In this document: positions 2,773-2,880 of the stretch, one piece after another | How positions within the stretch are numbered: the stretch's first letter is position 1 | Layout: every line of letters starts with the position of its first letter | Origin: a virus | Lineage: Duplodnaviria > Heunggongvirae > Uroviricota > Caudoviricetes | Direction: 5' to 3' (one strand) | Virus record (IMG/VR): IMGVR_UViG_2703718775_000030 | DNA length: 5,370 bases | Position numbers and translations under genes: made by a program | Notes under the pieces: model-generated | Database searches by the model: none | What the model saw: only the letters and a program-made list of their open reading frames with translations | What the model was told of the DNA's origin: nothing

Positions 2773-2806
2773 ACGCCCCGTATGTGTTCCCAGCACTGCG
2801 GGGCGT
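2773..2806. promoter_or_regulatory. GC-rich stem-loop (8-bp stem, 18-nt loop) in the leader of the minus-strand operon; followed by a T-rich tract on the plus strand
   Basis: Perfect inverted repeat CGCCCCG (2774..2780) / CGGGGCG (2799..2805), extendable by an A-T pair at 2773/2806. TGATTTTTGTGT follows on the plus strand. Confidence 0.45.
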
Positions 2807-2833
2807 TGATTTTTGTGTAATGGCAAGTACAAT
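2806..2833 (+). promoter_or_regulatory. Candidate sigma70 promoter for the RHH gene: TTGATT, 16-bp spacer, TACAAT
   Basis: Hexamers read from the sequence. The predicted transcription start falls inside the first palindrome. Confidence 0.35.
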
Positions 2834-2845
2834 GGTAATTACCAT
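2832..2845. promoter_or_regulatory. Operator-like perfect 14-bp palindrome ATGGTAATTACCAT (O1)
   Basis: The sequence equals its own reverse complement. A second near-identical copy lies 30 bp downstream. Confidence 0.6.
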
Positions 2846-2851
2846 GTAGGT

Positions 2852-2880
2852 ATAGTAATGAAGGGTAATTACCATGTCAA
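2852..2880 (-). promoter_or_regulatory. Candidate sigma70 promoter on the minus strand reading into the replication operon: TTGACA (2880..2875), 17-bp spacer, TACTAT (2857..2852)
   Basis: Consensus -35 hexamer and a good -10 at optimal spacing. O2 lies within the spacer and O1 at the predicted transcription start. Confidence 0.55.
2862..2875. promoter_or_regulatory. Operator-like palindrome copy AGGGTAATTACCAT (O2, 13 of 14 positions symmetric), overlapping the RHH gene start codon
   Basis: Exact 14-mer GGTAATTACCATGT occurs at 2834..2847 and 2864..2877. Confidence 0.55.

Follow-up and report, generated by a model that had tools for sequence, protein, structure and literature searches.

A putative ribbon-helix-helix repressor, its paired palindromic operators and a candidate antisense RNA in the predicted regulatory core of a Gram-negative phage satellite

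Introduction

Judged by analogy, the closest described systems to the locus treated here appear to be the immI region of phage P22, with respect to protein and promoter logic, and the CopG/RNAII system of plasmid pMV158, with respect to the pairing of a ribbon-helix-helix (RHH) protein with an antisense RNA. The locus lies in a 5,370-nucleotide stretch of viral DNA (Caudoviricetes; IMG/VR record IMGVR_UViG_2703718775_000030), referred to as the window. It comprises a gene for a 57-residue RHH protein, two palindromes (O1 and O2) at the 5′ end of this gene, a predicted promoter P(+) for the RHH gene, an opposed predicted promoter P(-) that would serve a leftward operon with an Icd-like gene and replication genes, and a structured RNA of about 80 nucleotides (nt) antisense to the first gene of that operon. 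By gene content, the window represents the regulatory core of a phage satellite of the Gram-negative PICI (phage-inducible chromosomal island) type, integrated beside tRNA-Pro. An earlier reading of its sequence (the original prediction) had proposed that the RHH protein acts on both palindromes, regulating its own gene and gating the leftward operon. We hypothesize that an RHH repressor at O1 and O2, an antisense-RNA layer and a third layer of isrK- and C4-type RNAs jointly control this operon, and assign a probability of roughly 70% to this explanation as a whole.

Arc of P22 acts on "two divergent and overlapping promoters" (PMC2724298). The present locus likewise shows an Arc-type RHH protein, a candidate operator within the strong promoter of what would be an "anti-immunity" operon, and divergent, overlapping promoters with shared operator DNA, both promoters being predicted ones. 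P22 also has sar, a short cis-antisense RNA directed against a ribosome-binding site (RBS) within this operon. On the other hand, P22 immI involves two proteins and two different operators, whereas one protein and two palindromes of identical class, 30 bp apart, are found here. The first codons of the repressor gene also hold the -35 element of the promoter to be controlled, and the antisense RNA is directed against the RBS of the first gene, with its terminator supplying the -35 element of the repressor promoter. A single RHH gene is present, no Ant-like gene was found in the annotation by the Prokaryotic Genome Annotation Pipeline (PGAP) or in family scans, and the operon leads to icd and replication genes.

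CopG of pMV158 is an RHH protein that represses the promoter driving repB (PMC2724298). As in pMV158, a minimal RHH repressor and a small antisense RNA would jointly control replication genes in the present locus; in one related locus (L007), a primase gene is the first gene after the leader. RNAII of pMV158 is an antisense RNA that acts at the ribosome-binding region. However, copG is co-transcribed with repB from the repressed promoter, whereas the RHH gene here is divergent, with an overlapping opposed promoter, and pMV158 is a rolling-circle plasmid, whereas the present element is an integrated phage satellite.

A third group of systems, namely P1/P7 immI, P4 immunity and Gifsy-1 IsrK, shares with the window an isrK-like RNA, a C4-type RNA and an Icd-like gene in the leftward leader. 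Matches to C4 and isrK in Gram-negative PICIs have already been reported as relatives of P4 CI and seqA (PMC10111431), and IsrK read-through and trans activation have been described (PMC4825925). In contrast to P1 and P4, the present locus carries an RHH repressor gene and a further cis-antisense RNA upstream. The corresponding operon promoter of P1 is controlled by the C1 repressor; that of P4 is not known to have a protein repressor in the lysogen.

The original prediction likened the locus to switches of the P2/186 type. Opposed promoters, overlapping transcripts or footprints and a repressor on repeated sites between divergent genes are indeed reminiscent of these phages. P2 C and 186 CI are repressors of the helix-turn-helix type, opposed by Cox or Apl, and the transcription starts lie tens of bp apart. 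Since neither C/CI-type nor Cox/Apl-type proteins were found in the PGAP annotation or in family scans of the open reading frames (ORFs) around the switch, we regard this analogy as loose, with only the geometry of opposed promoters in common. Another comparison concerns Stl (Rpr) of SaPI and PICI elements, which is also encoded by a divergent repressor gene between the integrase side and the excision/replication operon (PMC6092414). Stl proteins are larger helix-turn-helix repressors that are lifted by helper-phage proteins, whereas the protein considered here is a small RHH protein without known antirepressor.

Palindromes and opposed promoters

O1 and O2 (Table 1) are the sole perfect palindromes of at least 10 bp in the window, and their starts are 30 bp apart. 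A single 14-bp palindrome is common by chance: of 2000 first-order Markov windows, 652 contained one, whereas none of the 2000 had a 14-bp palindrome accompanied by another copy with at most one mismatch within 60 bp. The sequence GGTAATTACCAT, at up to two mismatches, has four matches, all of them at O1/O2, compared to a mean of 0.41 in shuffled sequences, of which 1 in 200 reached four. Sequence and simulation thus both confirm the palindrome pair that had been predicted. A weak third copy of the operator (76%, 2819-2835) lacks conservation in related loci and was not counted, and the palindrome core occurs nowhere else in the island at up to one mismatch. In the 21.5-kb locus L001, the only two core matches with one mismatch, GGTATTTACC (14011-14020) and GGTAATTGCC (14054-14063), are non-palindromic; they lie 43 bp apart in the neighbouring host gene yejM and are probably due to chance.

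Both promoter-like sites were found by a consensus scan at the positions originally claimed, namely TTGACA-17-TACTAT on the minus strand and TTGATT-16-TACAAT on the plus strand; the scan returned four sites in 1.1 kb, with 1.0 expected from shuffles. The -35 element of P(-) is the reverse complement of RHH codons 1-2 (ATG TCA A). The -35 element of P(+) sits in the U-tract of the antisense-RNA terminator described below, and its -10 element abuts O1. It follows from the coordinates that O2 fills the spacer between the -35 and -10 elements of P(-), and that O1 is located at the predicted P(-) start, as had been proposed. O1 overlaps the last 2 nt of the P(+) -10 element together with the predicted starts of P(+) (~2840) and P(-) (~2845). 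O2 in addition spans the likely Shine-Dalgarno sequence (GGG) of the RHH gene and extends two bases into its start codon (ATG at 2874-2876), the A and T being common to the end of O2. The elements of both promoters interleave over 2806-2880. Given a distance of just about 5 bp between the predicted starts, it is safer to speak of "overlapping opposed promoters" than of promoters "face to face", the term of the original prediction.

The RHH protein

The 57-residue protein belongs to a family of 93 database clusters with 64-98% identity. Family members are found in Escherichia, Salmonella, Yersinia, Xenorhabdus, Photorhabdus, Serratia, Pantoea, Pectobacterium and Gilliamella, and furthermore in Pasteurellaceae, Aeromonas and Oceanimonas; distant members share a C-terminal RGIEPKG tail. 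Among 19 ungapped orthologues, the median proportion of synonymous differences (pS) is 0.83, which is saturated, compared to 0.18 for non-synonymous differences (pN), and usable pairs display a dN/dS ratio of about 0.1. Hence, the ORF is a translated gene under purifying selection. PGAP annotation of a 99.1%-identical genome does not list this gene, and assigns "ash family" and "Icd-like" pseudogenes to the opposite strand.

The AlphaFold2 model of the protein (mean predicted local distance difference test score, pLDDT, 79) displays an extended N-terminus and helices at residues 18-31 and 36-50, and thereby the RHH arrangement of an N-terminal strand and two helices in about 45 residues. DSSP calls no strand in the monomer because the RHH sheet is formed only in the dimer. 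Foldseek matches in the PDB include AmrZ (3qoq), NikR, CopA_SO, Arc (1bdv/1par/1myk), MazE9, ORF56, CopG, PutA and ParD, with TMq of 0.5-0.6 and a root-mean-square deviation of 0.8-1.5 Å over 35-38 residues. The PHROG database yields a match to PHROG 228, "Arc-like repressor" (E = 1.5e-6, for which no curated cut-off exists), and 8 of 30 family members match Pfam Arc at E ≤ 0.1 (best value 2.5e-4). Comparison by hhalign with Arc and Mnt, whose sequences were entered by hand, places PPYQMRLP of the RHH protein on PQFNLRWP of Arc and PHFNFRMP of Mnt. Residues 11, 13 and 15 then align with Gln9, Asn11 and Arg13 of Arc, its base-contacting positions. The predicted DNA-reading strand comprises residues ~10-16 (PPYQMRL). 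We accept the RHH fold class of Arc type for this protein.

Comparison of related loci

A scan of one genome per species yielded 66 loci, of which 34 non-redundant ones, anchored on NTGTCAA, were used for the analysis of geometry. These 34 loci span Enterobacterales, Pasteurellaceae, Aeromonas and Oceanimonas. On the plus strand in rightward direction, they share a conserved order upstream of the RHH gene: a GC-rich hairpin, TTGnTTTT, TAnnnT, O1, an AT-rich stretch, O2 and NTGTCAA. The stretch between O1 and O2 consists of about 16 AT-rich bases and holds a minus-strand -10-like hexamer. The centre of O2 is located at -5/-6 from the start codon wherever it could be scored (most of the 34 loci), and O1 lies 30-31 bp (34-35 bp in some loci) upstream of O2. 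Conservation of the palindrome pair in related elements, which the original prediction had named as a check, is thus seen in a geometry kept across genera. The best minus-strand -10 hexamer at 16-18 bp from TTGACA matches the consensus at 5 of 6 positions in 23 loci and at 4 of 6 in another 8, and TAnnnT is found as minus-strand -10 element in 27 of 34. Of the 33 loci scored for P(+), 17 have as their best candidate a TTGnTT-16/18-TAnnnT arrangement whose -10 element ends at -41/-42 relative to the ATG.

The core of the palindromes differs between loci together with the N-terminal strand of the RHH protein. The strand RSP[QP][YF]QMRL is accompanied by GGTAATTACC or a variant differing in 1-2 bases (17 non-redundant loci), RSPQFPMRL by GGTATATACC (4 loci), KTDQYQ[IL]RL by TGTAATTACA (8 loci), NKS.QYQ.RL, which is found in Pasteurellaceae, by AGTAATTACA (2 loci), and RRGNPPFQFRL by GTGTAATTACAC (3 loci). 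At the level of sequence, such co-variation is the pattern predicted for a cognate pair of repressor and operator. Other, otherwise similar islands of E. coli carry different small RHH-like genes in the same slot, annotated as "YlcI/YnfO family", each with repeats of its own. Three copies of GGTATTCA are present in L068 and three copies of GTGTTGAACAC in L069. The model PICI EcCICFT073 (L071, NC_004431.1, 1380242-1381052) carries two copies of GGTGTGGCCCAC, 23 bp apart, with an adjoining TTGACG in the equivalent position. Comparison, in terms of family, fold, geometry and co-variation, thus supports the idea of an RHH repressor that acts on these operators, regulates itself and gates the leftward operon; binding and repression would be the predicted part of it.

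It is conceivable that the palindromes are bound by another protein, such as AlpA, a repressor of the helper phage or a host factor, while the RHH protein serves as an accessory factor of excision or partition, for example. Among regulators of Gram-negative PICIs, AlpA alone has experimental support (PMC6092414), and some published accounts describe RHH proteins also as accessory factors of relaxosomes or of partition. However, the class of the palindrome tracks the class of the RHH N-terminus across genera, and in E. coli islands the palindromes are swapped together with the RHH allele, whereas the flanking antisense RNA and leftward genes are similar. Moreover, O2 is locked onto the RHH start codon, and in the present island alpA is frameshifted whereas both operators are intact. 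We consider binding by such a different protein quite unlikely.

An alternative reading is a type II toxin-antitoxin module, in which the RHH protein would be the antitoxin, the downstream ORF of 62 codons (3090-3278, plus strand) its partner, and the palindromes autoregulatory, with no role in the replication operon. Many RHH proteins function as antitoxins, and ParD, RelB, CopA_SO, MazE9 and AtaR were found by the fold comparison; in some databases, family members bear the label "HicB family antitoxin", and a small ORF on the same strand follows the RHH gene here as well as in L068, L069 and EcCICFT073. Yet in nine loci whose ORFs were listed (L002, L007, L014, L019, L023, L031, L035, L041, L059) no comparable plus-strand ORF directly follows the RHH gene; L019 and L041 have alpA or int, on the opposite strand, as the next gene. 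A tblastn search with the 62-residue ORF found no match in the 66 loci of the genome collection. In L069, the same ORF follows a different RHH allele, whereas partners in toxin-antitoxin modules co-vary. The 57-residue protein has no C-terminal toxin-binding extension beyond a tail of 7 residues, and an operator for its own promoter only would require neither a position of O2 in the spacer of the opposed promoter nor the -35 element kept in the RHH start codons. A co-transcribed, co-varying toxin was thus found neither by tblastn nor in the nine loci nor in L069, and we rejected the module as an explanation, holding it to be very improbable. The 62-residue ORF matches PHROG 21027 (E = 1.6e-15), to which no function is assigned in that database. 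L069 displays the same start sequence of this ORF, and L068 and EcCICFT073 carry ORFs in the equivalent position.

A candidate antisense RNA upstream of the RHH gene

Upstream of the RHH gene, the plus strand encodes a structured RNA (Table 1) that covers the RBS region of the first leftward gene (Shine-Dalgarno sequence AGGAG at 2753..2749, start codon ATG at 2743..2741). The RNA is predicted to fold into two stem-loops (-33.6 kcal/mol, z = -4.2). The loop of the first (SL1, ~2738-2770) displays the anti-Shine-Dalgarno sequence CUCCU, and the second (SL2, 2772-2807), together with a U-rich tail, is predicted to be an intrinsic terminator. The -10 element TATGAT of the predicted promoter is embedded in codons 5-7 of the first ORF on the minus strand; CAT, which reads as the ATG of this ORF on the other strand, follows exactly 10 nt downstream. 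In 33 of the 34 non-redundant loci, TAnnnT keeps precisely this offset, and its three inner bases vary along with the encoded amino acids. As a sequence pattern, a fixed TAnnnT with varying inner bases is the signature of a -10 element.

For analysis of structure, 31 loci were aligned over the stretch that is bounded by the T-run and by the complement of the start codon of the first leftward gene. RNAalifold displays a consensus of two hairpins with 21 pairs, 14 of which show compensatory changes. Of all cells in consensus pairs, 96.1% are paired, a value reached in 0 of 500 shuffles, and slid partners yield 35-46%. Canonical pairs amount to 96.1% when read on the plus strand versus 82.4% on the minus strand, with 98 versus 9 G.U cells, from which it follows that the structure belongs to a plus-strand transcript. 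A covariance model finds the motif on the plus strand only, with one copy beside the RHH gene in almost every locus searched, and it also matches L068, L069 and EcCICFT073 (53.9 bits), none of which were used in building the model. Two other interpretations of the hairpin at 2772-2807 were rejected: strand pairing and the covariance model favour the plus strand over a structure in the 5′ untranslated region (UTR) of the leftward mRNA, and the compensatory changes argue for RNA and against a DNA site for AlpA. Comparison to Rfam 15 yielded no match at E ≤ 1. By sequence and structure, the RNA appears to be previously undescribed and a candidate for a new RNA family. In Photorhabdus (L033-L037), a second, higher-scoring copy of the motif is located at about 1631-1719 (plus strand), about 1.2 kb from the first, and adjoins another "MANANSN..." ORF.

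The co-orientation of this RNA with the RHH gene, which it adjoins in almost every locus at about 60 nt before the ATG, raises the possibility that the RHH protein is made mainly by read-through from the antisense promoter, with P(+) minor or unused. The -35 element of P(+) is weak and located inside the U-tract, P(+) is ill-defined in one clade, and the U-tracts are interrupted (TTGATTTTTG), which would allow SL2 to act as an attenuator. Alternatively, the RHH protein may be a Mnt-like switch that represses P(-) and activates its own promoter; Mnt of P22 reportedly represses Pant and stimulates Pmnt. Against both, the position of O1 over the -10 element and start of predicted P(+) favours repression, and a TAnnnT hexamer abuts O1 in most loci. 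Either variant appears unlikely, though deserving some weight, and would modify rather than replace the explanation by an autoregulated repressor.

The isrK/C4/icd cassette

According to the original prediction, P(-) points into the small-gene/replication operon. The operon is present in the predicted direction; however, it does not lead straight to the replication genes, as the antisense-targeted RBS, an isrK-like RNA with its terminator, a C4-type RNA and icd intervene. Because of these RNA elements along the leftward operon, the repressor would be one layer of control among several. The isrK-like RNA carries an intrinsic terminator at 2560..2542, as indicated by a terminator scan. The sequence GGAUUGGCGU in the isrK region (2592..2583) is complementary to C4 at 2457..2448, and the loop of C4, with the sequence UCUUCAGUGU (2473..2464), shows complementarity to ACACUGAGGA, which lies over the Shine-Dalgarno sequence of icd (2394..2385). 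A C4-type RNA, a complementary region upstream of it and a target at the icd RBS, which are characteristic of the P1 immI / P4 CI / IsrK cassette, are thus all found. The score for the Rfam family c4-a1b1 is 21.2, below the threshold of 46.7.

A scan of 20 loci with Rfam detected C4 and isrK together in only 3, all of them from Pasteurellaceae. As constant partners of the RHH module, C4 and isrK were therefore dismissed, and the cassette is regarded as an add-on in the present island. In annotated or ORF-listed loci, an Icd-like gene or a primase gene directly follows the leader. A direct repeat of 46 nt (2321-2366 and 2681-2726, 76%) marks a duplicated 5′ end of icd, which suggests insertion of the cassette by recombination within icd. 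Further Rfam matches are int-alpA RNA near the integrase side in L031 of Pasteurellaceae (5529-5594, minus strand, 48.6 bits) and the small RNA isrN in L055 of Pantoea (4583-4725, plus strand, 113 bits).

The island and its neighbourhood

At 99.1% identity, the window matches chromosomes of E. coli O26, O111 and related strains. In the record NZ_CP058682.2, the upstream side consists of tRNA-Pro, int, a hypothetical gene and the frameshifted alpA, followed by the RHH slot. Beyond the slot lie the Icd-like gene, four small ORFs, DUF4222, the RepA-family helicase, TerS and the major capsid gene. The same gene order is found in EcCICFT073. By gene content, this agrees with the description of Gram-negative PICIs (int, alpA, a replication module, packaging-related late genes, a specific attachment (att) site, about 8-15 kb). 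Where the 99.1%-identical genome has a longer stretch, the window shows a run of about 21 N (~1565-1585). Its 5370 bases compare to 5550 in that record, so coordinates to the right of this run are offset by 180 relative to NZ_CP058682.2. Coordinates of the features are listed in Table 1.

Table 1. Features of the regulatory region and the leftward operon, in window coordinates.
Feature	Position	Strand	Basis and remarks
RepA-family helicase gene	1..1398	-	After icd, small ORFs and DUF4222 in the same operon
icd-like gene, 63 aa	2183..2374	-	NCBIfam phage_ICD_like, 57.5 bits (cut-off 25); PGAP annotation of 99.1%-identical record
C4-type antisense immunity RNA (P1/P7 C4, P4 CI class)	2429..2516	-	Rfam RF01695, 77.6 bits (gathering score 45)
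isrK-like RNA (relative of P4 seqA, P1 a1/b1 region)	2538..2614	-	Rfam RF01394, 66 bits (gathering score 50)
-10 element TATGAT of predicted antisense-RNA promoter	2725..2730	+	TAnnnT at fixed offset
Structured small RNA, about 80 nt	2737..2816	+	cis-antisense to 5′ UTR, Shine-Dalgarno sequence and start codon of first P(-) gene
Predicted P(+) of the RHH gene: TTGATT 2806-2811, 16-bp spacer, TACAAT 2828-2833	2806..2833	+	9/12 consensus; predicted start about 2840
Candidate operator O1, perfect 14-bp palindrome ATGGTAATTACCAT	2832..2845		Sequence; same-class palindrome kept in related loci
Predicted P(-) of the leftward operon: TTGACA 2880..2875, 17-bp spacer, TACTAT 2857..2852	2852..2880	-	10/12 consensus; predicted start about 2845
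Candidate operator O2, AGGGTAATTACCAT, perfect 10-bp core GGTAATTACC	2862..2875		Sequence; position kept relative to start codon
Gene of 57-aa Arc-like RHH protein (MSTPLEKRSPPYQMRLPEDFRAQLEEAAKADGDTSLATWIKRVLRKELQQRGIEPKG)	2874..3047	+	Family, selection, fold, profiles

The gene of the AlpA-type regulator (3427-3632, minus strand) is frameshifted in this island lineage according to a PGAP note, with the stop read after MEAIRKIIFRQEVKKLSTSRQTARCKA. Two AAAAACGGTG repeats lie just upstream of alpA (3733..3724 and 3713..3704, minus strand). A GC-rich hairpin (GCGCCGT...ACGGCGC, 3057-3063 with 3077-3083, in the segment 3043-3083), which on the minus strand is followed by UGAUAGUUUUUAU, looks like a terminator for transcripts from alpA, located just before the RHH stop codon. 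The segment of ~3050-3100 around this hairpin shows about 96% identity in many other E. coli islands.

On the minus strand, an open frame of 409 codons (3412..2183, 1230 nt) runs antisense to the RHH gene and the 62-residue ORF, and continues through the operators, isrK and C4 into icd. As a real gene this ORF was rejected: the antisense frame across the RHH gene contains stops in 7 of 19 orthologues, and no minus-strand ORF of at least 50 residues lies over the RHH gene in the nine ORF-listed loci. PGAP renders it as the "ash family" and "Icd-like" pseudogenes, and its Pfam Phage_ASH match falls on the isrK/C4 RNA region. The frame is not kept open in other genera.

Proposed mechanism

The data may suggest a mechanism by which expression of the leftward operon is prevented in consecutive layers. 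At each GGTAATTACC palindrome, a dimer of the RHH protein would place the two-stranded sheet of its N-termini (residues ~10-16) in the major groove. Occupancy of O2, in the spacer, and of O1, in the start region, would shut P(-), and thereby the route to icd and the replication genes, and the same occupancy would limit both P(+) and translation of the repressor's own mRNA (negative autoregulation). Since the footprints of RNA polymerase at P(+) and P(-) overlap almost completely, the promoters should moreover exclude each other. A constitutive plus-strand RNA, which would begin some 4 nt ahead of the CAT opposite the first start codon and end at a terminator just upstream of P(+), would pair with the RBS region of transcripts that escape from P(-), whereby translation may be blocked or cleavage triggered. 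In this island, C4 and the isrK-like RNA, including its terminator, may form a third layer by causing premature termination and a block of the icd RBS, as in P4, P1 and Gifsy-1. Icd, DUF4222 and the RepA helicase would then be made only once every layer has been passed.

Several findings weigh against this explanation. P(+), P(-) and every start point were predicted from consensus sequences. The assignment of P(+) is ambiguous and poorly defined in loci of the TGTAATTACA type. The presence of TTGACA in 34 of 34 loci is partly circular because the loci were anchored on NTGTCAA, and three full-length homologues (L032, L052, L055) lack TTGACA. With regard to the protein, Foldseek E-values are 0.95-6.5, none being ≤ 0.001, although for a fold of this size values near 1 are to be expected. 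The score for Pfam Arc (PF03869) is 14.3 bits, under the cut-off of 20.4, and NCBIfam YlcI_YnfO_N scores 18.7 bits, under the cut-off of 30; hhalign with Arc and Mnt yields E ~0.003 at a probability of only 11-12%. In PDB chain sequences, the family profile found no RHH protein, and its matches, designed helical-repeat proteins only, were discarded as a compositional artefact. Membership of the 57-residue protein in the curated Arc family is hence not established. The co-variation of strand and core extends over about five clades, so that few independent events lie behind it, and residue 11, aligned with Gln9 of Arc, is Q or P without a change of the operator. A distance of 30 bp between O1 and O2 is too far for direct contact of dimers, which leaves cooperativity unexplained. 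Finally, a satellite copy with a frameshifted alpA may be decaying, and is perhaps no longer inducible.

Biological significance

According to the founding paper on Gram-negative PICIs, whether these elements have a global repressor "is unclear", and the only regulator identified there is AlpA, an activator (PMC6092414). In the open-access literature, we found no later paper that assigns a global repressor to Gram-negative PICIs. With regard to an RHH or YlcI/YnfO regulator in PICIs, this literature yielded only gene-content tables, in which an accessory "prophage-associated protein" is listed. The class of mechanism, an RHH repressor on overlapping promoters combined with an antisense RNA, is textbook knowledge. 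The interest of the locus lies in a cassette that is widespread, in an undescribed RNA family and in a candidate for the missing repressor of Gram-negative PICIs. The region is currently mislabelled by genome annotation, and the antisense RNA could be submitted to Rfam as a family.

As a tentative extension, with the odds somewhat against it, the RHH protein and its "YlcI/YnfO family" alleles may serve as master repressor in a large group of Gram-negative PICIs, as the functional counterpart of Stl. Allele-specific operators would then define immunity groups, helper phages would induce the islands by neutralising the repressor or through AlpA-driven interference, and the antisense RNA of the new family would be a fail-safe on the first gene. 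Gram-negative PICIs are widespread satellites that move virulence and defence genes. Since an RHH gene, allele-specific operators and the antisense RNA are also present in EcCICFT073, which is experimentally tractable, they offer a testable candidate for what may keep such islands silent and determine their specificity.

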